Shown here: positions 4,030-61,982 of the stretch, piece by piece
Layout of the letters: every line of letters starts with the position of its first letter
Position numbering within the stretch: position 1 is the stretch's first letter
Source: Christensenella sp.
GTDB lineage: Bacteria > Bacillota > Clostridia > Christensenellales > CAG-138
NCBI GenBank assembly: GCA_034926785.1
Contig: JAYFQU010000009.1
Coordinates: 118-64,117 of the forward strand
Length of the DNA: 64,000 nt
Direction of reading: 5' to 3'
Program-made: the position numbers and the translations under genes
Notes under the pieces: model-generated
The model's input: only the letters and a program-made list of their open reading frames with translations
The model's database searches: none
Told to the model about the DNA's origin: nothing

Positions 4030-6963
4030 ATGAACCGAACGATACGACTCAACAGATTGCTCGCACTATGGATCGTGCTTGCGCTTGCGCTGGTGGTTCC
4101 CGCCATCGCGTTGGCGGAGGGTGGACCAACCGCGACGCTGTATTCCCCTTCGACGGGGGCTTCCACCTCCGGCAATCAGAAAATCATCTTTTCGCTGAGC
4201 GAGCAGGTTTCGCTGGTGAGCGGGAGGAACATTACCATTACACCCGCCGGCGGAACGCCTTCTGTTGCCGCTGCTACCAGCGGGACGCGGCTCGGTAACG
4301 CGAGCACGGGGCCCTGGTATGTCAGCTATAAGCTGAGCGACTTTAGCCCCGCGCTGACGCTGACCCCCAATACGACATATAACGTATTGGCCCAGGCAGG
4401 GGCATTTGAGGCCGCCTCGACCCCCAGCGCGGAAGCAACGGGAACGTTCACGACCGGAGACGCAGGCGGCACGCTTGTGATCTACACCAAGACCAACAAC
4501 CAAACGCTCCAAACCGGCGGTGTTGATATCGTCAGCGGGAGCGCAGTTGCCGGCGGCAGCCCAATCACCGCTATCAACACAAGCGATGGAAGCTATGTTC
4601 CGGTGAAGACCGTCTACGTCAACGGCAGCAAGACCGACGGGGTCGCTCTCTCGTCCTATGTGCCTTCCGGGGAACTGGAGGTGTATTACACCCGCACGGA
4701 CGGTACGCTGACCGGCTCTGCCGCGATCTCCGGTCAGGAATACATCGGCGGCGAACTCAGCGGAACGGTTTCCGATCTGAATCAGCCGGACACCAGCGGG
4801 ATTCGTTTTCAATGGGTGCGCGTGGGCGATGGCGGCAATGAGCTCCTTGAATCCGGCGGCATATCCATAAAGCACCCGGTCGTAGCCGCCGACCTGGGAA
4901 AGGTGATCCGACTGGATGTCACGGACACAACGCTCACAAGCGGAACGCTCTCCGACACGACGGGAACCATCGCCAAGGCGCCGTATACCGGCAGCGTTCA
5001 AGATCCTGCTCTGGAAAGCAGCACCGGCACCTCGATCACGCTGGTCTCCGTCTCGGGGTATGAGTATTCGCGCGACGGCGCAACGTGGCGGACCGACCCG
5101 ACCTTCTCCGGCCTGACGGCTGGTACGCCTTATGACTTCTACCAGCGCGTCGCGGAGACGACGACGACCCTTGCCTCCGGCACGAGCAACAAGGTGACGC
5201 TTTCCATCAAGGCGACGCTCACCGGAACAGTCTCCATCAGCGGCACCGCGCAGTCCGGCGTCGCGTTGACAGGTTCCATTACCGGCACCACCAACGCCTC
5301 CGGCACCATCACCTATGCCTGGTCGCGCGGGGGAACGCCGGTTGGCACCAACAGCGCAACCTATACGCCCAACGCGGCGGATGTCAACTCCACATTGACG
5401 CTGACGATTTCAACCAGTGAACAGAACGGGACGATTTCCGCGACCACGGCGGCGGTCAAGAAGGCTGCGAATACCACGGTGCCCGCCGCGCCAACCATGG
5501 CGAGCGCAACGGCGACCACCATCACGCTCAACGCCACAGGCGGATATCAATATTCGCTCGGCGGAACCTACTGGCAGGATACCACGACCTTTAACAATCT
5601 GGTTGCGGGCGCAACCTATACCTTCTATCAGCGCGTTGCAGAGACGAGCGCGGTGCTTGCCTCAGGCGCGAGCACGGGCGCAAACTTCACCACGCTTCCG
5701 ACGCTGTCAGGAACCATTCTGTCCAGCGGAGAGGCAAGGTATGGCATCACAATGACCGTAAACCTCTCCGGCACCAACAACACGGGCACGTTGACCTATA
5801 CCTGGAAGCGCGGGACGATGGTTGTCGGAACGGGCACAAGCTATGCCGTTCAGGCGGCGGATGTGTCTAATACGCTCTCGGTTGAGGTGACAAGCTCCGT
5901 TCAGGGCGGCAGCGTGACGCGCTCCTTTGGAACCGTTGCCAAGGCATATTATGTTGGTAATGCGCCGGATGCGCCGACGCGCTCCAGCCGCACCACCACC
6001 AAGATCGTGCTGAAGGCGGTTGACGGCTATGAGTATTCGCGCGGCGGCACAACCTGGCAGGACAGCACGACCTTCAGCGGACTGAAAGCCGGCACGAGCT
6101 ATACCTTCTACCAGCGTGTGAAGGCGACGGCTACGACCGAGGCTTCCGACAAGAGCGCGGCCTATAAGACCTCCACGGTGGCATCGTCCACATCGGACGG
6201 CGGGGACGCCGACACCCCCAGCAAGACGCCTACGCCGAAGCCGGGAACAACGCCGACGAATGGCGCGAGCGGCACCACGCTGTATAACTACACACTGACA
6301 GACGATAACACGCGCATCCTCTACTCGACGATGAAGAGCCTCGCAGAGGGAAATAAGACGCAGGATGTCACGATCAAACAGAGCAATGTCGAATTCACAT
6401 TCCCCAAAGGAACGATGACGGACACCTATACGCAGCTCTGGTATGACTTCGGCACGACGATCAACAACTCGATTGCGGAACAGACGGCAAAGCAGATCGC
6501 CGGGGATGCGTATGTTGCGACGATTCACTATAACTACAGCGGCGAACTGCCGGGCAAGGCGAATATCCGCTTCTGGCTCGGCGCCGCACAGGCAGGCAAG
6601 ACGCTGTATTATTATCTGCTCAACGCGGATAACACGCTTACCTTCCAGCAGACGTCAACCGTGGACAGCACCGGCTGGGCTTCCGTTACGCAGACGCACT
6701 GCTCGGACTATGTGTTCCTGAGCCGTGATATCGCGAGCGCGAGCGCCTCCCCGTCGGTCTCCCCGTCGGCGGATCCCTCCGTCTCGCCTCTGCCCTCGCC
6801 CAGCGCTTCACCGGAGCAGAACGGCGGTGGATTTACCTCTGACGGATGGTTCATCGCGGCGATTATTCTTATCGCGGTTGCGTTGATCGTCGGCGGCATC
6901 TGGCTCTACACCAAGAGCCGGGATGATCGAATGGACGACGATGACGACGACACTGATTTCTAA
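4030..6963 (+). CDS. Large secreted, membrane-anchored surface protein with three repeated Ig-like/FN3-like modules
   Basis: Signal peptide MNRTIRLNRLLALWIVLALALVVPAIALAEG. The module ...GYEYSRxGxTWxxxxTFSGLxAGTxYxFYQRV... occurs three times. The C-terminus has an S/P-rich linker, a TM helix (WFIAAIILIAVALIVGGIWLY) and an acidic tail. RBS is GGAAAGGAGAG. Confidence 0.75.
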   Translation: MNRTIRLNRLLALWIVLALALVVPAIALAEGGPTATLYSPSTGASTSGNQKIIFSLSEQVSLVSGRNITITPAGGTPSVAAATSGTRLGNASTGPWYVSYKLSDFSPALTLTPNTTYNVLAQAGAFEAASTPSAEATGTFTTGDAGGTLVIYTKTNNQTLQTGGVDIVSGSAVAGGSPITAINTSDGSYVPVKTVYVNGSKTDGVALSSYVPSGELEVYYTRTDGTLTGSAAISGQEYIGGELSGTVSDLNQPDTSGIRFQWVRVGDGGNELLESGGISIKHPVVAADLGKVIRLDVTDTTLTSGTLSDTTGTIAKAPYTGSVQDPALESSTGTSITLVSVSGYEYSRDGATWRTDPTFSGLTAGTPYDFYQRVAETTTTLASGTSNKVTLSIKATLTGTVSISGTAQSGVALTGSITGTTNASGTITYAWSRGGTPVGTNSATYTPNAADVNSTLTLTISTSEQNGTISATTAAVKKAANTTVPAAPTMASATATTITLNATGGYQYSLGGTYWQDTTTFNNLVAGATYTFYQRVAETSAVLASGASTGANFTTLPTLSGTILSSGEARYGITMTVNLSGTNNTGTLTYTWKRGTMVVGTGTSYAVQAADVSNTLSVEVTSSVQGGSVTRSFGTVAKAYYVGNAPDAPTRSSRTTTKIVLKAVDGYEYSRGGTTWQDSTTFSGLKAGTSYTFYQRVKATATTEASDKSAAYKTSTVASSTSDGGDADTPSKTPTPKPGTTPTNGASGTTLYNYTLTDDNTRILYSTMKSLAEGNKTQDVTIKQSNVEFTFPKGTMTDTYTQLWYDFGTTINNSIAEQTAKQIAGDAYVATIHYNYSGELPGKANIRFWLGAAQAGKTLYYYLLNADNTLTFQQTSTVDSTGWASVTQTHCSDYVFLSRDIASASASPSVSPSADPSVSPLPSPSASPEQNGGGFTSDGWFIAAIILIAVALIVGGIWLYTKSRDDRMDDDDDDTDF

Positions 6964-6982
6964 GGTTTGACGCCAGACCGAC

Positions 6983-7020
6983 AGGGCCTCCTCCGTACCA
7001 CCGGGGGAGGCCCTTCTTTG
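6983..7020 (+). terminator. Probable intrinsic terminator
   Basis: agggcctcc / ggaggccct stem followed by tctttg, a weak T-tract. Confidence 0.45.
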
Positions 7021-7108
7021 GGATAACTTTCACTATGCAGGTGGTTTTATCCGGCGGTATAATGAGTCCGCCGCAGGATTTTTCGGCAGAAATGGAGGCG
7101 AAAACGCC

Positions 7109-7993
7109 ATGGCACAGACCATCAGCGCGGCGTTGAAAAGACACCTGCTCCTCATGCAGCGCGATGAGATCACCGGCAGCATACTATATGAAAAAATCGC
7201 TGTCCGGCAGAAGGACGACAAGAATAAACAGGCTTTTTTGGAGATTTCCCGCGCGGAGCGGGGACATTATGAAACCTGGAGGGCGTATACCGGCGAGGAT
7301 GCCGCGCCAAACCGGATCCGGATCGCGCTGTTTTTACTGCTCAGCCGCATCCTTGGCGTAACGTTCACGATCAAGTTTTTTGAAAAAGGGGAGGATATCG
7401 GGATCGGCCTGCTGAGGGATATCGAGCAGGAACTGCCCGAGGCGCGGCGCGTGATCGCCGAAGAGGAAGAGCATGAACGGCGCCTGATGGAGATGATTGA
7501 CGAGGAGCGGCTGCACTACGTCGGTTCCATCGTGCTGGGCCTTAACGACGCGCTCGTGGAGCTCACGGGAACCATTGCCGGCCTGACCTTTGCGCTTGCG
7601 AACAACCGCCTCGTTGCGCTCTCCGGCATCATTACGGGCGTATCGGCAACGCTCTCCATGGCGGCCTCCAACTATCTGGCGCAGCGGGCGGAAGGGAACA
7701 GCAAGGCGCTTAAGTCCAGCGCATATACCGGCGTGGCGTATTTGATTACCGTCGTGCTCATCGTGCTGCCCTACCTGTTGCTTCCGAATGGATGGTATCT
7801 CGCCGCGTTCGGGATCATGATCGCGCTCGTGGTGCTCATCATTCTTTCGTTTAACTACTATATCTCCGTGGCGCAGGATCTGCCGTTCTGGAAACGGTTT
7901 GGCGAGATGGTGCTCATCAGCCTCGGCGTTGCGGCGCTCTCGTTCGTCATCGGTCTTGCGGCAAAACGGCTGCTTGGCATCAATGTCGGGTAA
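7109..7993 (+). CDS. VIT1/CCC1-family iron/manganese transporter with an N-terminal ferritin-like domain
   Basis: 294 aa. The N-terminus is a rubrerythrin/ferritin-like helix pair (EITGSILYEKIA..., ERGHYETW, EEEEHERRL). The C-terminus is the VIT membrane domain (LGLNDALVELTG..., SMAASNYLA). Confidence 0.8.
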   Translation: MAQTISAALKRHLLLMQRDEITGSILYEKIAVRQKDDKNKQAFLEISRAERGHYETWRAYTGEDAAPNRIRIALFLLLSRILGVTFTIKFFEKGEDIGIGLLRDIEQELPEARRVIAEEEEHERRLMEMIDEERLHYVGSIVLGLNDALVELTGTIAGLTFALANNRLVALSGIITGVSATLSMAASNYLAQRAEGNSKALKSSAYTGVAYLITVVLIVLPYLLLPNGWYLAAFGIMIALVVLIILSFNYYISVAQDLPFWKRFGEMVLISLGVAALSFVIGLAAKRLLGINVG

Positions 7994-8160
7994 CGGGACA
8001 ACCGCTCTTTGCCTTTCGCCCTCCGGATTTCGAGCGGCAAAGCGCTGCGAAGAAAGCGCCCGACTCCGGGTGATCCGTCACGGTTGCAAAGCCGCCACAG
8101 CCGGAATCTGCTGGGTAAGGGCGCAGGCCTTTACAATCCCAAGATTTTTTTGACAGACTG
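7994..8160 (-). repeat. Intergenic repeat family A, copy 1 (about 167 nt)
   Basis: The reverse complement starts cagtctgtcaaaaaaatcttgggattg and ends ggcaaagagcggttgtcccg. By eye it aligns along its length with the copies at 29744 and 52646. It abuts the VIT stop codon on one side and the hairpin 8161-8197 on the other. Confidence 0.8.
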
Positions 8161-8197
8161 CGGAGAGCACCCCCGATTATACGGGGGGTGCTCTCCG
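8161..8197. terminator. GC-rich stem-loop between convergent genes, with a repeat element on each side
   Basis: cggagagcacccc cgattatac ggggggtgctctccg gives a stem of about 13 bp. No T-tract is left on either strand because the repeats begin at the stem base. Confidence 0.5.
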
Positions 8198-8367
8198 CTC
8201 AGCGCATCGACCAAGTCCCGCGGGCTTTGCCGATGGGTTTTAGTTTGGGTTAAAATAACGCGATTCGCGCCATTTTTTCACAAATTGGGCGAGTGAATCG
8301 CCGAATTTGATGGAACATGGGGGATTTTCGAAATTCTAACCCCTGGCGGGGGTTGTCGATCCACTGG
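8198..8367 (+). repeat. Intergenic repeat family B, copy 1 (about 170 nt)
   Basis: It starts ctcagcgcatcgaccaagtcc. By eye it is roughly 85 percent identical to 45641-45813. It contains the internal hairpins cgcgattcgcg, ggcgagtgaatcgcc and gggggattttcgaaat. Confidence 0.8.
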
Positions 8368-8399
8368 CTCCTTTGAACTCTTTTATACGTTGGTGCGGG

Positions 8400-9848
8400 T
8401 TAGAGACTGTCCCCAAAATCCTTGCGGAACTTCGCTACCAGCTGTTCCTGCCAGTCTCCGATGGGTTCCAGACGGCCAAAGAAGAAGCGGAGCGTCGCCG
8501 GCTCTTCGACAAAATTCAGTCCGCCGACCAGCGCGCGGTTTTCAAACAGCCAGCTGATGCGGTCTACCGCGTAGAGAATCTGGCTCATGGTAAACACGCG
8601 GCGCGGGAGGGCGAGGCGCAGCAACTCCATGCTTGCGATGGGCTCCGTTCCGTCCGGCTCGCGCTGTTCGGAGAGGGTTCCGCGCTCCATTCCGCGCACG
8701 CCGCCTGCGAGGTAAACCGCGGTTGCGAGCGCAGCCGCAGGGTAGACATGGTCGTCCAGATGCGAGAGAAACTTTCTCGCGTTGATGTGGCAGCCAAGGC
8801 CGCCGGCGGGGGTGACGACGGGTACGCCGCGCTTCTTTAGCTCCGCAGCCATGAACTCGATGAACTGCGGCCCTTGCGAGATCACGGTTTCATCCATCGT
8901 TTCCTCCAGACCGACCGTCATAGCCTCCATCTCGCGTACGCTCATGCCGCCGTAGGTGAGAAAGCCCTCGAAGAGCGGGATGAAATCCTTCATGCGCTCA
9001 TAGTGGCCCTTGTCGTTCATCGCCATACCGCCGCCGCGCGCAAAGCCGAGCTTTCGAGCGGAGAAATAGATGATATCCGCGTTGGCGCAGATGGCGCGCG
9101 TGATTTCGCGAATGCTCCAATCCCTGCAGGCGGCCTCGCGCACCTTGATGAAGTGCAGATTGTCCTGCATCAGGCTCGCGTCCAGCACGACCATGATGCC
9201 GTGTTCATGGGCGATCTTCGCCGTCGCGGTCATGTTTTCCAGTGAGAAGGGCTGACCGCCGATGAGGTTTGTGCCCGCCTCAAGGCGGATGAAGGGGATG
9301 TTCTCCGCGCCGTTGCGCGCGATGCATTCCTTGAGCTTGTCCAGGTCGATGTTGCCCTTGAAAGGAAAGTCGCTCTCGGGGTTGAGACCCTCGTCGATGA
9401 CGATCTCCTCCACGCGCCCGCCGACGCGCGTGATATGCGCCTTTGCAGTGGTGAAGTGGAAGTTCATCGGCACCACGCTGCCGGGCTTGACGAACGACTC
9501 CGCGATGATGCTCTCGCAGGCGCGTCCCTGATGCGCGGGCAGAAAATACTTTGTGCCGAACAGCTCGGCGATCTTTGCCTCCAGACGGTAGAAGGTTGCG
9601 CTTCCCGCATAGCTGTCGTCCGCGGTCATCATTGCGGCGGTCTGCTTGTCGCTCATGGCGTTGACGCCGCTGTCGGTGAGCATATCCAAAAAGACATCCT
9701 CGTTGCGCAGCAGAAACGTATTGTTGCCCGCGGCTGTCATCGCTTTGTACCGTTCCTCAACCGGCAGAAGGTTGAGTTTTTGCACGACGCGAACCTTGTG
9801 CATTTCGAGGGGGAGCTTTTCTCCTGAAAACAGTTTAACTTCGCTCAT
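8400..9848 (-). CDS. Beta-eliminating lyase family enzyme (tyrosine phenol-lyase / tryptophanase family, PLP-dependent)
   Basis: The segments NTFLLRNEDVFLDMLTDSGVNAMSDKQ, YAGSATFY, PAHQGRACE, FKGNIDLDKL and the lysine region FSARK resemble TPL/TnaA along the full length. The start was moved to ATG 9848 (MSEVKLF) with RBS GGAGGAAC. Substrate is not assignable by eye. Confidence 0.85.
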   Translation of the reverse strand: MSEVKLFSGEKLPLEMHKVRVVQKLNLLPVEERYKAMTAAGNNTFLLRNEDVFLDMLTDSGVNAMSDKQTAAMMTADDSYAGSATFYRLEAKIAELFGTKYFLPAHQGRACESIIAESFVKPGSVVPMNFHFTTAKAHITRVGGRVEEIVIDEGLNPESDFPFKGNIDLDKLKECIARNGAENIPFIRLEAGTNLIGGQPFSLENMTATAKIAHEHGIMVVLDASLMQDNLHFIKVREAACRDWSIREITRAICANADIIYFSARKLGFARGGGMAMNDKGHYERMKDFIPLFEGFLTYGGMSVREMEAMTVGLEETMDETVISQGPQFIEFMAAELKKRGVPVVTPAGGLGCHINARKFLSHLDDHVYPAAALATAVYLAGGVRGMERGTLSEQREPDGTEPIASMELLRLALPRRVFTMSQILYAVDRISWLFENRALVGGLNFVEEPATLRFFFGRLEPIGDWQEQLVAKFRKDFGDSL

Positions 9849-9963
9849 AATTCTGGTTCCTCCGATAGATCTTCTCTTTTTTTCAAAATGAGCACCCGCA
9901 TGGCTGACTTGCTTCTGAGCGCTGATTTTTCTGTTTCGACCAAACAGACCCCTGCTGCGGAGC

Positions 9964-10312
9964 ATAAAAAAACGCCCCTTGCAGTGTTGCAAGAGGGCGA
10001 TTGCGCATCGCGGTACCACCTCGGTTTGCCGCGTCCTCACGGGCGGCGGCCTTCACGGGTACGGATTCGCGGAGAAAGCCCCGCTGTTTCGATACCCTTC
10101 CTTTGATAACGGGAGGAAGCCCGGCGAAACCCTACTGAAAACAATCAGGTGACCTTCCTGTTCGTTCAGGCGGCGGCTGGTTGCGCGTATTCGCGGGTGA
10201 ATCCGGCTGCCTTGCACCATCCGGCAGTTCTCTTTCGAATCCTTTGCGGCGCTGGATGAGAGCGCCAACCCGTTACTTCTTCGCAGTCATAGCCTGTATG
10301 CTGTTTGATTTA
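9964..10312 (-). promoter_or_regulatory. T-box leader (tRNA-sensing riboswitch), best-fitting specifier UAC (Tyr), with an intrinsic terminator
   Basis: Read on the minus strand. The T-box sequence is AGGUGGUACCGCG (plus 10009-10020). The terminator is cgcccucuugcaacacugcaaggggcg followed by a U-run (plus 9966-10000). Stem I has the K-turn AUGA, specifier-loop 5' side AAGAAGUAA, the AGAGA bulge and the distal GGUGCAA loop. The 3' loop reads GAA-UAC-G (UAC = plus 10187-10189). Confidence 0.85.
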
Positions 10313-10318
10313 TTATGC

Positions 10319-10348
10319 AGTATAAGATGATAGATAATATATTGTCAA
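10319..10348 (-). promoter_or_regulatory. Sigma-A type promoter for the T-box leader
   Basis: On the minus strand: TTGACA, an 18-nt spacer, then TATACT. Confidence 0.5.
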
Positions 10349-10497
10349 GTAAAAACGAAGTTTTTTTGTACACGGAGAGACCATTCTGGTCAAAACTCGC
10401 GAAAAAAGAGCGTCCATCCGCGGCGATCGGGCGTGGTTATTGAGAACCGATGCGGCGTTTTCGAATTTTATGTGGCGAAAAGTTCACGAAATGTTCT

Positions 10498-10526
10498 TTG
10501 CACTCGCCATACACGAGTTGTATAAT
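10498..10526 (+). promoter_or_regulatory. Sigma-A type promoter for the zinc-ribbon membrane protein gene
   Basis: TTGCAC, a 17-nt spacer, then TATAAT (10521-10526). Confidence 0.55.
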
Positions 10527-10594
10527 GGTTGCGTTATATTGGATGGACTATGCGATAAGAATGATTCTCGCTTCAGAATGGAGGAAGTGGATAG

Positions 10595-12781
10595 ATGGTA
10601 TGCAAAGAATGCGGCTCGTATAACGCGGAGAACCTGAGCGTTTGTAAGGGTTGCGGCGCGAAGCTTCGGGAGGATGATACGACCGCCAGCGGCACGGAAA
10701 CCAGAGGCGCCGCGGAGGACGGAAGACCTTCGCGTGATTTTGTTAAGGCGCCGGCCTGGCCCAAGAGCGCCTATAGCGGCGCGCCGGAAAAGCCGGTTTC
10801 CGATACGCCCGCATCTTCGGGTTCTTTTCGCCCGACTATTCCGCCGCGTCCGGCGGCGAGCGCACCCACCGCGACCTGCCCGCACTGTGGCAAGCCGGTG
10901 GTTTCCGATGCGCCGTTTTGCGCATATTGCGGCCAGCGTATCGCAGGGGAGCCCGCTCCCGCTGCCGTGAGCGCGCGACCCGCGGCAAAACCCGCGCCCG
11001 CGGCCGCGCCTTCCCGCGCGACCTATTCCGCCACCGACTTTGACGACGAAGACGATGACGATTATGAGGACGAGGACGAAGAGGATTACAAGCCGAGCAA
11101 ACCCGCGAAGCGCGGCGGCAAGATGGCCCGCCGCGAAGAGCAGGAGGATCTCGACGAATATGACGACGACGAAGAAGGCTATGACGAGGAGGAATACGAC
11201 GACCTGCCGCCCAAGCGCGCCAAGGGTACGACCATTCTCTTCTGGGGCCTGATCGTACTGCTGCTCGCGCTGATTGCGATCTTCGGCATGTACATTGCCA
11301 AGAAGAACTTTGACGGGGACTTTGGCAAGATGTTCGCCTCCATCGGCAGCGTGTTCAACAAGAGCGGCACCGAGGATGTTGGCGCGGCGGATGCAACCGC
11401 CACTGCCGACCCGGAGAGCCAGATGTACACCGCCTCCATCAGCGAATATACCGATCCGACGACGAGCGAGGTCTATTTTGACATCGACATCTACGCGCCG
11501 ACGGGGAGCGCCATCCGCATTATAACGGATGCGACGCTCAAGCAGGACACCACGACGGTTCCTTCCAACAATCATGTGATCCTGCGCATCTCGCGCGATG
11601 TGTTCATGCCCAATGCGCCGGTGGACAGCGAGGTTGTCACCATTACGCCGAACATTCAGGTGATTGCGGCGGATGGCACGACCACTCAGCTCACGGTTCC
11701 GGAGATTACGGTGAATGTTCCCGCCCTCTCTATGACCATAACGGAGCCGACGACGGACACCGTAAACGCGACCTTTGACAACAGCCCGATCGCCATCATG
11801 GGTCAGGTGAATAACTACGACAGCGAGATCGCCGTATTTGTCAACGACGAACAGGTCTATGTGGACAGCACGGGTCTCTTCACCGCAAGCTACACGCCAA
11901 AGGCCGCGCCGATGATCGCCGCGCCGACCGAGGCTCCGGCTGCGAGCGCAGATCCTTCCGTAACGCCGGATCCCGCCGCTACGCCGGAAGCAAGCACCTC
12001 CCCGAGCACCTCCCCCGAGGGTTCGCTGGAGGAAACCGCGGCAACGGAAGCCCCGGCCGCAACCGACGAAACCGGTACGGCAACCGACGCGCTTACCCCG
12101 GCCGGCGGCACGGAGACCATCACCATTGAAGCGCGCAAGAACAACTGCGTCACCGCGCGCAAGGTCATCACCGTTGAGCCGTATGTCATGCAGACCATGT
12201 CGTTCACGGTAACCAATGACCTCGCGGGGCTTTCCTCCTCCGAGGGCAGCGTAACCCTGACCGGCACGGCAACGCCTGGCGCGGTCATCACTGCCACCTG
12301 CCCGTCCGCGGATGTCACATTCGGCCAGGCGGTCGTTTCCGAAACGGGGACGTTCTCCATGGTTGTCTCCCTCGCAAAGGTTGGCGCCTATGATGTCAGC
12401 CTCGTCGGCAAGCTCACGGGCTACTATGACGGTACGCAAACCGTCACGGTGGAACGTCCGCCGTCGGCCTCCTCCAGCTCGTTTAAGAAGGCTGCGGCCG
12501 ATCTGAGCAAGAGCTATGACAAGATTGCCGGCGGAACGGTCACCAGTGGGGACTTCGTCTTCACCGGAAAGATTACGGAGATTATCTCTGCCGAACCGTA
12601 TACGATCTTCCGTGTAGCGTTGTCCAACGGCACAGAGGTCATCGTTGCAAACCGCAGCGCGAAATCGACGATCAACTCTTCGGACCTGAAGGATAAGAAG
12701 CAGATTGCCGGAACGCTCAAGGGACTCTACACCGATGGCAAGACCCCGTTTATCTGGGGCTGGTTCATCTGGAACAAATAA
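10595..12781 (+). CDS. Zinc-ribbon domain membrane protein with a large extracytoplasmic region
   Basis: There are two CxxC...CxxC ribbons (CKECGSYN...CKGCGAKL and CPHCGKP...CAYCGQ). These are followed by a long D/E-rich stretch, one TM helix (TILFWGLIVLLLALIAIFGMYIA), then beta-rich domains and a P/T/A linker. Confidence 0.7.
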   Translation: MVCKECGSYNAENLSVCKGCGAKLREDDTTASGTETRGAAEDGRPSRDFVKAPAWPKSAYSGAPEKPVSDTPASSGSFRPTIPPRPAASAPTATCPHCGKPVVSDAPFCAYCGQRIAGEPAPAAVSARPAAKPAPAAAPSRATYSATDFDDEDDDDYEDEDEEDYKPSKPAKRGGKMARREEQEDLDEYDDDEEGYDEEEYDDLPPKRAKGTTILFWGLIVLLLALIAIFGMYIAKKNFDGDFGKMFASIGSVFNKSGTEDVGAADATATADPESQMYTASISEYTDPTTSEVYFDIDIYAPTGSAIRIITDATLKQDTTTVPSNNHVILRISRDVFMPNAPVDSEVVTITPNIQVIAADGTTTQLTVPEITVNVPALSMTITEPTTDTVNATFDNSPIAIMGQVNNYDSEIAVFVNDEQVYVDSTGLFTASYTPKAAPMIAAPTEAPAASADPSVTPDPAATPEASTSPSTSPEGSLEETAATEAPAATDETGTATDALTPAGGTETITIEARKNNCVTARKVITVEPYVMQTMSFTVTNDLAGLSSSEGSVTLTGTATPGAVITATCPSADVTFGQAVVSETGTFSMVVSLAKVGAYDVSLVGKLTGYYDGTQTVTVERPPSASSSSFKKAAADLSKSYDKIAGGTVTSGDFVFTGKITEIISAEPYTIFRVALSNGTEVIVANRSAKSTINSSDLKDKKQIAGTLKGLYTDGKTPFIWGWFIWNK

Positions 12782-12784
12782 CGC

Positions 12785-13087
12785 GTGAAGATTTGGGCGA
12801 AGATACTCAAACATCATAAGATCATCAACGAGGCCGTGCGGGAATTCCCCGCGCGGCCTTCGGATGCAGAGGGCTGGAATCGCGTGCTGGCGGAGCTTGC
12901 AAAGCCGCTGGACCTTGCCTGCCCCGTATTGCTGGAGAAACACCTGCTGGAGCTCTCGCGATTTAACAGAACGATATTCACGCAGTCGGATTTCATCGAA
13001 AGCGTTTCGTTTGACAAATTCGAGGTAGAGATCTTTCCGGAGAGGAAAAAGGAAAAGCAGGTTTCGTATCTCTATGGTGAAGACTGA
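12785..13087 (+). CDS. Hypothetical protein (100 aa)
   Basis: An ORF with a GTG start 3 nt after the upstream stop. It has no clear RBS. The composition is coding-like but I recognise no family. Confidence 0.4.
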   Translation: MKIWAKILKHHKIINEAVREFPARPSDAEGWNRVLAELAKPLDLACPVLLEKHLLELSRFNRTIFTQSDFIESVSFDKFEVEIFPERKKEKQVSYLYGED

Positions 13088-13111
13088 GCGAAGCAGAACA
13101 GGAGGGATGTC

Positions 13112-13627
13112 ATGCAGATCAAGGAGATGTTTCAACTGGTGCCGGAGACGGCGGAGCAGCTTCCGCGCGGCGCGTTCCTAACGGCGGGTGGCGGCGTTTG
13201 GAACCCGATGACCATCGGCTGGGCGCAGTTCGGCGTGGTTTGGTCCAAACCCGTTTTAACCGTGCTGGTTCGAAAGAGCCGCTATACCTATGGCCTCATG
13301 GAGCAGGCGGAGGTGTTCACCGTCAGCGTTCCGCGCGAAAAGGCGCTCACAAAGGAGATTGCCTTCTGCGGCAGCCGCTCCGGCAGGGATGTGGATAAGG
13401 AGAAAGACTCCGGCTTATCGCGTATTCAGGCGCGGGCAGGCGGCGCGGATGGCGTTGCGGAGTGCCACATCGTGTTTGAATGCCGCATCGTTCAAAAGCA
13501 ACTGCTCGATTTGAACACGCTGGATCCGGAGATTCGTAAAAGGAACTACGGGAGCAATCAAGCTTTGCCGGATGGCGACCCGCATGTGCTCTATGTCGGA
13601 GAGGTGCTTGCGGCCTACAGACTCTAA
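13112..13627 (+). CDS. Flavin reductase-like (FMN-binding split-barrel) family protein
   Basis: 171 aa. The N-terminal pattern GAFLTAGGG..NPMTIGWAQFGVVWSKPVLTVLVRKSRYTY is typical of the flavin reductase-like domain. RBS is AGGAGGG. Confidence 0.7.
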   Translation: MQIKEMFQLVPETAEQLPRGAFLTAGGGVWNPMTIGWAQFGVVWSKPVLTVLVRKSRYTYGLMEQAEVFTVSVPREKALTKEIAFCGSRSGRDVDKEKDSGLSRIQARAGGADGVAECHIVFECRIVQKQLLDLNTLDPEIRKRNYGSNQALPDGDPHVLYVGEVLAAYRL

Positions 13628-13641
13628 TCGGTTCAAAAACA

Positions 13642-13678
13642 AATCAGCCGTTCGCCTGTGCGAACGGCTGATTTTATT
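13642..13678 (+). terminator. Intrinsic terminator
   Basis: A perfect 14-bp stem aatcagccgttcgc / gcgaacggctgatt with loop ctgt, followed by ttatt. Confidence 0.75.
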
Positions 13679-13864
13679 ACTAGCTGCCTGCTCTGAAGAA
13701 ATAAGGAGCGGGCGGCGGAAGATGCGACCCCCCGCGCGCGAACCCTCCGGGGGGATGGACGGTTCGCGCGCATATCTCGTGGGGGAGGGTCAACCCGGAG
13801 GGGGGGCCCGCCGGGCTGCTATGCCATCGTCCAAACGGATTGATTGGGCGTGATGACCGCGCGG

Positions 13865-15169
13865 TTATTGCTCGGCGGGCTTATACTCGCCGAATGTGAC
13901 GGATACGGTTTGCTCCTTGCCGTCGCGCTGAATGGTCAGCGTTGCGGTATCGCCGGAGTTGTAGCCGCTGATGACGGAGGCAAGAGCCGTGTTGGAGGAA
14001 ATCTCCGTATCATCCACCTTCAGGATCAGGTCTCCTACCTTGAGTCCCGCGCTGTCGGCTGCGCTGCCGGAGACGATTTGCGCGATCTGCACACAGCTGG
14101 CTCCGCTGCCGAAGAAGTTGCCGAAGAGGCCGTTGCCCCAGTCGTTCGTTCCGGAGGAGAGGGTGACATCCTGCGTGTAGACGCCGAGGTACGCTCTGCC
14201 GAGTACATAGCCGTGATCGATCAGGTTTGAAATAATGGTCTTTACGCTGCTTACGGGGATTGCGAAGCCGAGGCCTTCCGCGTTGCTTGCACTTGCTTTG
14301 GCGTTTACGATGCCCACCAGCGAGCCGCTGGCGTTGAAGAGGCCGCCGCCTGAGTTACCCGGGCTGATGGCAGCGTCGGTCTGGATCAGCTTCATCTTTG
14401 CGTTTTCAACCGTGACCTCGCGGCTTAGTGCGCTGATGATGCCGCTGGTCGCCGTTCCGCGCAGTTCGCCGAGCGGGTTGCCGATGGCAATGACGTCCTC
14501 GCCAACCGTCAGCATGTCGGAGTCGCCAAGCGACGCGGGACTGAGATTGGTGGCGTCGATTTTGAGAACGGCAAGGTCGCTGCGCGAGTCGGATCCGACG
14601 AGTTTTGCCTCGTGCTCCGATTCATCGTTGAGAATCACCTTGATCGTCTCGGCGCCGTCAACCACATGCTTGCAGGTGACGATATAGCCGTCGTTTGTCA
14701 AAATGATGCCGCTTCCGCTGCCTGCCTGTACCTGCTGGCTGTTGCCGTCCGCGCCGTTGGTGTTGTTTCCGTTGCCGAAGGGGAAGCCGTAGCCGCTTGC
14801 GGTGTAGTAGGTATCGATGCCGACGACGGAGGGCGCTGTGAGTTCTATGACCTGCGCTTTGCTAAATGTGGTAGCAAAACTGCTGGTTGAGGCGTTGGTC
14901 AGCTTGTCGGACCCGCTGGTTGTGGCGTCGCTGAGCGCGTTTTTTGCCGTTTGAGACTGCTGCGTGTTGAGCGCGGAGAGTTGCTCGCCGACGTATTGGC
15001 GCGTATAGAGGCCGCCCAGAAGGCCGCCAAGCAGAACCGCGACCATCATAAACACGATCAGCGTCGAAAAACGAACGCGCCTCGGCTCGCTGCGCCGCGG
15101 GGAAGATGCGCCGCTCTCCTGTGGATGGCCGGTAGAATACCGTTCATACCAATCGTTATTTTGATCCAT
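13865..15169 (-). CDS. htrA: HtrA/DegP-family serine protease with a C-terminal PDZ domain
   Basis: N-terminal TM anchor, a trypsin-like domain with the catalytic TDAAISPGNSGGGLFN segment, and a PDZ-like C-terminus (GLKVGDLILKVDD). Confidence 0.85.
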   Translation of the reverse strand: MDQNNDWYERYSTGHPQESGASSPRRSEPRRVRFSTLIVFMMVAVLLGGLLGGLYTRQYVGEQLSALNTQQSQTAKNALSDATTSGSDKLTNASTSSFATTFSKAQVIELTAPSVVGIDTYYTASGYGFPFGNGNNTNGADGNSQQVQAGSGSGIILTNDGYIVTCKHVVDGAETIKVILNDESEHEAKLVGSDSRSDLAVLKIDATNLSPASLGDSDMLTVGEDVIAIGNPLGELRGTATSGIISALSREVTVENAKMKLIQTDAAISPGNSGGGLFNASGSLVGIVNAKASASNAEGLGFAIPVSSVKTIISNLIDHGYVLGRAYLGVYTQDVTLSSGTNDWGNGLFGNFFGSGASCVQIAQIVSGSAADSAGLKVGDLILKVDDTEISSNTALASVISGYNSGDTATLTIQRDGKEQTVSVTFGEYKPAEQ

Positions 15170-49699: not shown

Positions 49700-49988
49700 C
49701 AAACAAAAACCCCCGACCAAATCGATTTGGTCAGGGGCGTAAATTCGATACGCGGTACCACCCTGGTTTGACTGCCGGTTCCCCGAACAATCCTCATTAA
49801 CCTCCAACAAGGCCGTAACCGGTAACGAGGTCAGTCGTCTCGCCCTAACCCAACGGGTTCAGGCGAACAGCTCCGGGATGAGTCATACACACGGTTCGCA
49901 GCACCGGCTCGCACCAACCGCCGGTTCTCTTAAGCTGTAGAGGCCGCGTCTTGTTCCCTTCAGCGCCTTTCAATAAATAATATATGAT
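49700..49988 (-). promoter_or_regulatory. T-box leader, specifier CUC (Leu), with an intrinsic terminator
   Basis: Read on the minus strand. The AGAGA bulge, the distal UGGUGCG loop and the specifier loop UGA-CUC-A (CUC = plus 49880-49882) are present. The T-box sequence is CAGGGUGGUACCGCG (plus 49751-49763). The terminator is ccccugaccaaaucgauuuggucggggg followed by a U-run. Confidence 0.88.
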
Positions 49989-59473: not shown

Positions 59474-59697
59474 ACAACCAAATAGCTGAATCCTTCGCGT
59501 TGCGGCGCGGGGGAGCGGGAGAACCAATTTATTGGGGTGAATCCGGTGGGCACCATCGGTAGGACAGCTTTTCGTCCGAACCCGTCAGCTAATCTCGTAA
59601 GCGTAGAAAGCAGAGTTTTTCAACGTCTATTTCGCATCTGAAAAACCGATGATGTCCTTTTTGCGCTTGCAGTCTCTGCGGGCGCATGTTTTTTTGC
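59474..59697 (+). promoter_or_regulatory. ydaO-type (c-di-AMP) riboswitch with a terminator expression platform
   Basis: Pseudo-symmetric conserved blocks are present: GAAUCC...GCGGGGGAGC...ACCAA...GGGGUGAAUCC...CCGAACCCGUCAGCUAAUCUCGUAAGCGU. They match the ydaO motif as I recall it from B. subtilis. An 11-bp terminator follows (tgcgcttgcag tct ctgcgggcgca, 59662-59686) plus a T-run. Confidence 0.78.
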
Positions 59698-61732: not shown

Positions 61733-61982
61733 TACTTTCGGAGAGACCCGGGAAGCAGTAACGCATCAGAAAGAGCGCATCCACCCCCAGAGAGCCGCGC
61801 AGAGGCTGCAAGCGCGGCGATGGATGACAGCGTGAAGACCACCCGGCGACCGAACAGCGGACGCCGCCCGATACAGCGGAGCAAAGCGCGCGTATGCAGC
61901 GGCATGCGCGAACACGGGTGGAACCGCGGTAGAGCGTCTATCGTCCCGAAGCCAAACAACAGGCTTCGGGGCGTTTTATTTT
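61733..61982 (+). promoter_or_regulatory. T-box leader, specifier ACC (Thr), with an intrinsic terminator
   Basis: The specifier-loop 5' side has AGUAA and the AGAGA box is present. The 3' loop reads GAAG-ACC-A (ACC = 61838-61840). The T-box sequence is ACGGGUGGAACCGCGG (61913-61929). The terminator is cccgaagcc aaacaaca ggcttcggg followed by a T-run. Confidence 0.88.

Follow-up and report, generated by a model that had tools for sequence, protein, structure and literature searches.

Tyrosine phenol-lyase (TPL) is a reversible enzyme that serves in the preparative synthesis of tyrosine from phenol, and pyruvate with NH4+ as well as serine or cysteine enter its known chemistries. Indole-salvaging tryptophan synthase beta (TrpB/TrpB2) stands under tryptophan T-box riboswitches in some Firmicutes. 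Tyrosine T-boxes, according to the main text of PMC2494555 and the supplement of PMC3766115, precede tyrS, the gene of an NhaC-type transporter (tyrT), tyrA and aro genes, and phenylalanine hydroxylase; the targets published in these parts of the two sources all supply or use tyrosine, and no lyase is among them. In the Bacillus cereus group, the main text of PMC2494555 describes a tyrosine T-box before the phenylalanine-4-hydroxylase gene (pah/phhA) and a tyrosine biosynthesis operon. The stretch analysed here, 64,000 nucleotides (nt) of Christensenella sp. (assembly GCA_034926785.1, contig JAYFQU010000009.1, positions 118 to 64,117; referred to as the window), carries on its minus strand a T-box leader with a tyrosine specifier, followed by a gene for a member of the TPL/tryptophanase family, termed the lyase below.

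We favour, by a little more than even chances, the reading that this tyrosine T-box drives a stand-alone TPL-like lyase providing an accessory supply of tyrosine from exogenous phenol. In the literature searched, which did not include Vitreschak 2008 and the 2009 MMBR T-box review, no T-box was linked to TPL or tryptophanase, and no physiological synthesis of tyrosine from phenol was described. The pairing is likewise unlisted in the T-box regulon compilations of PMC2494555 (main text) and PMC3766115 (main text and regulon tables). A preliminary description of this DNA, made from its letters, had known of no earlier account of the pairing, which is consistent with these sources.

The T-box leader and its switch

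The leader matches the Rfam T-box model RF00230 with 60.2 bits (E = 1.3e-12) over model positions 1–219 when the 641-nt stretch 9780–10420 is searched, and ranks ninth of the 11 T-boxes found in a scan of the whole genome (E = 1.2e-12). Long insertions in the Stem II/III region account for the low score, which falls short of the RF00230 gathering score of 93; for this reason a default Rfam scan of the window lists just a T-box at 49730–49972 and a cyclic di-AMP (c-di-AMP) riboswitch, and omits positions 9990–10299. Leaders of homologous lyase genes score 73.6, 84.5, 93.2 and 122.4 bits against the same model. Two other matches near the leader, to ClpQY_promoter (E = 0.11) and HOXB13-AS1 (E = 0.41), are weak and attributable to chance.

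As read from the sequence, Stem I comprises a base helix GGCU/AGCC, the AUGA kink-turn (K-turn), a helix UGCG/CGCA, AAGAAGUAA and an upper helix CGGG/CCCG (coordinates of all elements are given in Table 1). The covariance-model match and the genome scan bear out the T-box assignment of the preliminary description, and every detail of Stem I that it had given is readable in the sequence. The promoter boxes upstream are kept in the leaders of relatives. At the downstream end, the 3′ arm of the antiterminator (−11.2 kcal/mol) is also the 5′ arm of the stronger terminator (−18.1 kcal/mol), such that the two structures exclude each other upstream of the lyase open reading frame (ORF), and this overlapping layout is also present in the leaders of relatives. 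The genome has a single tRNA-Tyr, with anticodon GUA and discriminator A73, and the UGGU bulge of the antiterminator is complementary to its ACCA 3′ end.

The identity of the leader as a T-box is as sure as sequence analysis permits, close to certainty, and the predicted switch logic rests on its anatomy and covariation. A decayed or non-functional T-box, leaving the lyase constitutive or otherwise controlled, would fit the score below the gathering threshold and the large insertions in the Stem II/III region; it is very improbable, as every functional element is intact and its conservation includes compensatory changes, and the leaders of relatives score up to 122 bits.

The specifier codon is UAC

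In the covariance-model alignment, the 3′ side of the specifier loop reads GAA-UAC-G, with UAC, and no different codon, in the specifier columns; this triplet complements GUA, the anticodon of the genome’s only tRNA-Tyr. The register was assessed on the aligned Stem I of 44 homologous leaders, in which AAUAC is invariant and the helices on either side of it covary. Compensatory changes occur in 13 of the 16 Stem I pairs, and RNAalifold leaves GAAUAC(R) unpaired just above the lower helix. With the Stem I structure, 94% of cells in the alignment are paired, compared with 30–48% when the partners are slid by 1–3 columns, and the observed value was reached by at most 1 of 500 shuffles on any of five measures and by none on four of them. 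The model alignment and the covariation thus agree on the tyrosine specifier followed by a purine that had been read from the single sequence.

Table 1 Elements of the T-box–lyase locus, in window coordinates
Feature	Position	Strand	Basis
Promoter of leader transcript, sigma-70 type, TTGACA-18 nt-TATACT	10319–10348	−	11 of 12 consensus matches
T-box leader (Stem I, Stem II/IIA-B region, Stem III, antiterminator)	9990–10299	−	RF00230 match
Stem I	10175–10294	−	Covariance-model alignment, sequence reading; covariation in 44 leaders
GA/K-turn motif AUGA of Stem I	10290–10287	−	
AGUA of specifier loop	10277–10274	−	
Distal AGAGA, tRNA-elbow platform motif of Stem I	10233–10229	−	
Distal GGUGCAAG, tRNA-elbow platform motif of Stem I	10218–10211	−	
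UAC (Tyr) specifier codon, with GAA on its 5′ side and purine G10186 on its 3′ side	10187–10189	−	Covariance-model alignment and 44-leader covariation
T-box sequence and antiterminator (AACCGAGGUGGUACCGCG...CCCUC)	9991–10027	−	Covariance-model alignment, folding
T-box core GGUGGUACCGCG	10020–10009	−	
Intrinsic terminator (CGCCCUCUUGCA / UGCAAGGGGCG + U7), stem 9999–9973	9966–9999	−	Terminator scan
Shine–Dalgarno sequence GGAGG, 10 nt before ATG	9859–9863	−	
Lyase gene, 482 amino acids (aa), single gene, ATG at 9848, stop at 8400–8402	8400–9848	−	Family and structure matches, tree

The lyase belongs to a third clade of its family

Membership of the TPL/tryptophanase family, as stated in the preliminary description, is confirmed by matches to Pfam Beta_elim_lyase (PF01212; 167.7 bits, cut-off 27) and to the NCBIfam subfamily NF009709, named ‘tryptophanase’ (581 bits, cut-off 285), and by solved structures, the best matches being TPLs (E of about 1e-108 to 1e-110) with which the lyase is about 45% identical. 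Its scores lie under the cut-offs of both equivalog families, at 426.4 versus 720.7 bits for TPL (TIGR02618) and 332.5 versus 825.8 bits for tryptophanase (TIGR02617). In a maximum-likelihood tree the lyase and its relatives, which align with it over residues 1–482, form a clade on a long branch with 100/100 support, outside both TPL and the tryptophanase TnaA. By these sequence measures the lyase is a deep third clade of the family, not a TPL orthologue, and ‘tryptophanase’ is most likely a misnomer for it.

Residues were compared by aligning 78 clade members with TPL of Erwinia herbicola and TnaA of Escherichia coli. The catalytic residues K257, Y71, D214, N185, R404, R100 and F123 are invariant in all 78 members, as are the TPL-specific contacts to the ring and its hydroxyl, T124, R381, F448 and M379, where TnaA has D137, I396, H463 and V394. 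Phe449 and Phe36 of the TPL specificity set are also invariant. The comparison of substrate pockets that had been proposed earlier thus returns TPL-type residues throughout the clade, and because the TPL catalytic set and the 4-hydroxyphenyl pocket (Thr124, Arg381, Phe448 and Met379) are kept, we infer that the lyase handles tyrosine or phenol.

Other positions depart from both reference enzymes. E69D, R217L, K256R, H343L and P289L are invariant in the clade, and D258 is replaced by Leu or Phe, all of these positions being conserved in TPL and TnaA alike; among them, Arg217, Lys256, His343 and Glu69, cofactor- or cation-site residues common to the two enzymes, have become Leu, Arg, Leu and Asp, respectively. 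Within the pocket, the differences from TPL are M288F, T450F and a variable position 61. As a speculation, R217L, K256R, H343L and E69D may bias or tune the direction of catalysis or its dependence on cations. They could also mean another pyridoxal 5′-phosphate (PLP) reaction that raises the tyrosine pool, such as a β-replacement or the cleavage of a tyrosine-containing or tyrosine-derived conjugate, with phenol not a substrate. The long branch that separates the clade from TPL and TnaA and the lack of an encoded phenol source in 34 genomes that hold the lyase (see below) point the same way. Such a chemistry is unlikely nonetheless, as the whole phenol/tyrosine pocket is invariant together with Tyr71, the general acid for C–C cleavage or formation at the ring, and no partner genes hint at another substrate.

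A divergent member of the third clade (L109; G132:C68:685-2815; 57% identity) keeps L217, R256 and L343; its pocket is altered (T124G, F448N and F450Y), it has no T-box, and it may represent a sister subfamily with another substrate. In the representative library, proteins of about 850–930 aa (P0017-P0022 and others) contain two tandem TPL/TnaA-like stretches, with 32–37% identity to the lyase.

The T-box–lyase pairing recurs

Contigs from one genome per species yielded 80 homologous lyase loci, of which 78 include upstream DNA. In at least 61 of these 78, a T-box containing GAA(A)UAC[A/G] lies at a suitable distance from the lyase, the pairing being shared by about 60 other anaerobic Firmicutes. 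The leaders fall into two divergent classes by their T-box core, UGGUACC or UGGUAAC, so that the pairing is not a single recent copy. In the protein tree the T-box-bearing genes cluster, with a minimum of two gains or losses. Loci without a T-box belong chiefly to Lentisphaerota, Kiritimatiellota and Bacteroidota, phyla without T-box use, together with a few Firmicutes, in which no other Rfam RNA element was found upstream of the lyase. Most of the genomes compared are metagenome-assembled genomes (MAGs), which makes absences soft.

Within the order of the window’s organism, the clade is present in 9 of 201 sampled genomes, and three additional members have tyrosine T-boxes (73–122 bits). None was found on 1 canonical TPL-type gene and 12 TnaA-type genes of the same order, nor on the third-clade member with the altered G124, N448 pocket; the T-box therefore tracks the third clade and its pocket rather than the whole family. 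Clade members from Bacillota, Lentisphaerota, Kiritimatiellota and Bacteroidota, in MAGs from guts and digesters, are 68–90% identical, and identity at this level across four phyla suggests that the clade is strongly constrained and has spread laterally. One full-length representative (64% identity) is the sole close match in a library clustered at 50% identity.

This distribution bears on the possibility that the lyase is an ordinary degradative TPL, converting tyrosine to phenol, pyruvate and ammonium, with a T-box that serves some other reason, such as nutrient-poor phases. All characterised relatives are catabolic, the best matches in the Protein Data Bank (PDB) are TPLs, and catalytic and pocket residues are kept. 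A cell that switched on tyrosine destruction precisely when tRNA-Tyr is uncharged would work against itself, yet at least 61 loci, with leaders of two classes, retain the wiring; no T-box precedes the canonical TPL-type gene of this order, and the lyase itself lies on its own 100/100-supported branch, at 426 bits against an equivalog cut-off of 720.7. We consider a degradative role quite improbable.

Some loci without a full T-box share other upstream motifs. About 150 nt before the lyase start, three of them (L114 and L115, from G066 and G190, and L072, from Desulfitispora) have AGGATGG(T/A)AG(C/T)ACGG and then a run of T; this motif resembles the true Shine–Dalgarno/start region AGGAGGGTAG(C/T)ACGGATG, has no Rfam match, and may be a different attenuator. 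Three others (L056, L068 from Pseudoflavonifractor, and L061) share TTTAAACTGTAAAAGCGCA...TTTAAAG, 60–120 nt upstream of the lyase, and L061 retains just a T-box-like antiterminator/terminator (AAAGGTGGTAATACGGG).

Tyrosine biosynthesis and gene neighbourhood

The genome assembly that contains the window is 94% complete. The lyase leader is the only detectable tyrosine T-box among its 11; the other ten, assigned by sequence or covariance-model alignment, have specifiers for Leu, Val, Trp, Cys, His, Ile (two), Met and Thr, with one for either Leu or Pro. The trpB gene sits behind the Trp (UGG) T-box, and tyrS (contig C33), with its short promoter region, lacks a T-box.

Several lines of evidence weigh against a supply of tyrosine by the lyase. 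Contig C8 encodes DAHP synthase (3-deoxy-D-arabino-heptulosonate 7-phosphate synthase; DAHPS), tyrA, aroB, aroA, aroC, pheA, aroE/K and aroQ, and with this full aro operon the lyase is not needed for prototrophy. The possibility, raised in the preliminary description, that the genome might lack the prephenate route to tyrosine is excluded by the same operon. Across genomes, tyrA is found in 22 of 28 holders of the T-box–lyase pair, 35 of 50 lyase holders overall and 157 of the 201 genomes of the order, and is thus no rarer in lyase holders than in the order background. Genomes with aroC and without tyrA include lyase holders in 3 of 30 cases, compared with 6 of 157 for genomes with tyrA (p = 0.16), and they are frequent in the order even without the lyase; replacement of tyrA by the lyase is therefore unsupported by co-occurrence. 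No UbiD-family decarboxylase (PF01977) was found in any of the 34 holder genomes searched, control genomes giving matches, which rules out endogenous phenol formed through chorismate, 4-hydroxybenzoate and a UbiD-type decarboxylase in these holders.

Around the lyase loci there is no conserved transporter, operon partner or neighbour gene; the neighbours vary and include a PP-loop ATPase, radical SAM, CNNM, DUF554 and condensation-domain proteins and others. Two contexts hint at a link with aromatic amino-acid biosynthesis. In a genome of the same family (G085; 98% complete, no PF02153 match for tyrA), DAHPS-aroB-aroA-aroC-pheA follows the T-box and lyase directly and in the same direction, after a gap of about 450 nt (L116, G085:C9:38000-54000, 6282–14135, minus strand), and in the equivalent operon of the window’s genome on contig C8 tyrA stands between DAHPS and aroB. 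In two Lentisphaeraceae loci without a T-box (L090, 5338–7198; L091, 3294–5154), tblastn places DAHP synthase and a prephenate-dehydratase-like gene after the lyase on the same strand. These are two independent contexts out of several dozen, a number that chance could produce.

To the same side of the balance belong the sub-threshold score of the leader and the loss of R217 and H343 with K256R, at residues important in TPL and TnaA catalysis, which makes different chemistry possible. No characterised member of the clade was found in the literature searched. Tyrosine synthesis with pyruvate and NH4+ moreover needs fairly high concentrations of phenol and ammonium.

That the genome already makes tyrosine would also suit an antimetabolite defence, in which the lyase degrades a tyrosine analogue competing at tyrosyl-tRNA synthetase (TyrRS), lowered charging of tRNA-Tyr induces the gene through the T-box, and the analogue is removed. 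The pocket resembles that of TPL without matching it fully (M288F, T450F and the variable position 61), the cofactor-side residues differ, and the gene is accessory, patchy and apparently moved between phyla at 68–90% identity, as resistance-like functions often are. On the other hand, the residues around the ring and its para-hydroxyl (T124, R381 and F448) are invariant as in TPL, and the lyase neighbourhoods hold no candidate analogue or producer gene. We know of no T-box that controls an analogue-degrading enzyme. Nor is there such a precedent in the main texts of PMC2494555 and PMC3766115 or in the regulon tables of the latter, and a defence of this kind seems to us rather unlikely.

As an observation on the order itself, 30 of the 201 genomes have chorismate synthase and no match to the prephenate/arogenate dehydrogenase family PF02153; these genomes represent either common tyrosine auxotrophy with the shikimate pathway kept or an unrecognised TyrA analogue.

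A model for accessory tyrosine supply

In the model that we favour, transcription would start at the promoter listed in Table 1, and the UAC specifier in Stem I of the nascent leader would read the anticodon of tRNA-Tyr, GUA. An uncharged tRNA would pair through its ACCA end with the UGGU bulge and stabilise the antiterminator, permitting read-through into the lyase gene; with a charged one, the stronger terminator would form. The lyase would then act in the tyrosine-forming direction, joining exogenous phenol through a C–C bond to a three-carbon amino-acid donor, which would be pyruvate with NH4+ (by reverse α,β-elimination) or else serine or cysteine (by β-substitution), a choice not deducible from sequence. 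It would serve as an accessory salvage route beside the prephenate pathway.

The tyrosine-forming direction is the most economical reading, we infer, because the tyrosine/phenol pocket is kept and the enzyme appears to be induced by a shortage of tyrosine, and it is strengthened by the recurrence of the pairing in at least 61 of 78 loci and by its absence from the canonical TPL and TnaA genes found in this order. Since tyrA is present, shows no complementarity with the lyase across genomes and is not accompanied by an encoded source of phenol, the role would be salvage of exogenous phenol and not replacement of the prephenate route. Phenol is common in guts and digesters.

More tentatively, and with chances that we place somewhat short of even, the third clade as a whole, whose members are now automatically named ‘tryptophanase’, may be a dedicated physiological ‘tyrosine synthase’ that captures phenol released by neighbouring tyrosine fermenters, condenses it with serine or cysteine or with pyruvate and ammonium, and is under direct tRNA-Tyr control in Firmicutes. 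If so, it would be for tyrosine what indole salvage by TrpB is for tryptophan, a family known for destroying tyrosine and tryptophan would have a widespread anabolic branch, and anaerobic communities would contain an unrecognised phenol sink and cross-feeding link. Many ‘tryptophanase’ annotations, counted as indole or phenol producers in surveys of gut toxins, would carry the wrong sign, and salvage of phenol to tyrosine in guts and digesters would be relevant to the phenol/phenyl-sulfate uraemic-toxin axis. The clade would also offer a naturally synthesis-tuned TPL scaffold for tyrosine or analogues of L-3,4-dihydroxyphenylalanine (L-DOPA). As a regulatory argument for the direction in which a reversible enzyme runs, the T-box wiring is unusually clean.

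Other features of the window

The lyase is flanked by a divergent gene for a zinc-ribbon protein and a convergent VIT-family gene. Upstream of the leader two ORFs overlap, one at 10484–13135 (minus strand, 883 aa) and one at 10595–12781 (plus strand, 728 aa); the plus-strand ORF alone has Pfam matches (zinc-ribbon domains) and conserved relatives, and the 883-aa minus-strand ORF is probably spurious.

Three other RNA elements were found. The T-box at 49730–49972 (minus strand, 118 bits) has a CUC (Leu) specifier and lies upstream of a 580-aa ORF, which we take from its first residues alone to be 2-isopropylmalate synthase. A weak T-box at 61734–61951 (plus strand, 44 bits in the genome scan) has an apparent ACC (Thr) specifier and precedes a 659-aa ORF, presumably threonyl-tRNA synthetase (ThrRS), again judged from the first residues alone. 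A c-di-AMP (ydaO/yuaA) riboswitch lies at 59474–59618 (plus strand, 95 bits).

Comparison with known systems

The leader has the architecture of the founding tyrosine T-box, that of Bacillus subtilis tyrS, with which it shares a K-turn Stem I, the UAC specifier followed by a purine, the AGAGA/GGUG platform, the UGGN bulge and the competing antiterminator and terminator; the predicted effector, uncharged tRNA-Tyr, is the same for both. Unlike the B. subtilis leader, it controls a relative of a tyrosine-degrading lyase instead of an aminoacyl-tRNA synthetase, a biosynthetic gene or a transporter, it has long insertions in Stem II/III and an Rfam score below the cut-off, and the tyrS gene of its own genome lacks a T-box. 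The pah/phhA T-box of the B. cereus group, as presented in the main text of PMC2494555, offers a precedent for a tyrosine T-box that switches on an alternative enzyme forming tyrosine in one step from an existing aromatic precursor; the reaction there is the hydroxylation of phenylalanine and here presumably the condensation of phenol, and function is predicted by comparative genomics in both.

With TPL of Citrobacter freundii and E. herbicola (TIGR02618; PDB 1TPL, 2TPL and 1C7G), the lyase has in common the fold family and the catalytic and specificity residues. It differs in forming a separate clade, in the substitutions E69D, R217L, K256R, D258L/F, H343L, P289L, M288F and T450F, and in the tyrosine T-box in front of its gene. 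TnaA of E. coli (TIGR02617) belongs to the same superfamily, and NF009709 would name the lyase ‘tryptophanase’; the indole-specific residues Asp137, His463 and Ile396 of TnaA are, however, in the TPL states Thr, Phe and Arg in the lyase, and a tnaC leader is absent.

TrpB has fold II and an experimentally established function, whereas the lyase has fold I and its function is a hypothesis, making the relation one of analogy and not homology. The logic proposed for the two is the same, in that a PLP enzyme induced by its cognate uncharged tRNA would join a free aromatic ring to a three-carbon unit. Set beside these systems, the locus puts a target of a new class behind an ordinary T-box, and this target comes from a third branch, so far uncharacterised, of a known enzyme family, a branch whose physiological role is probably reversed.

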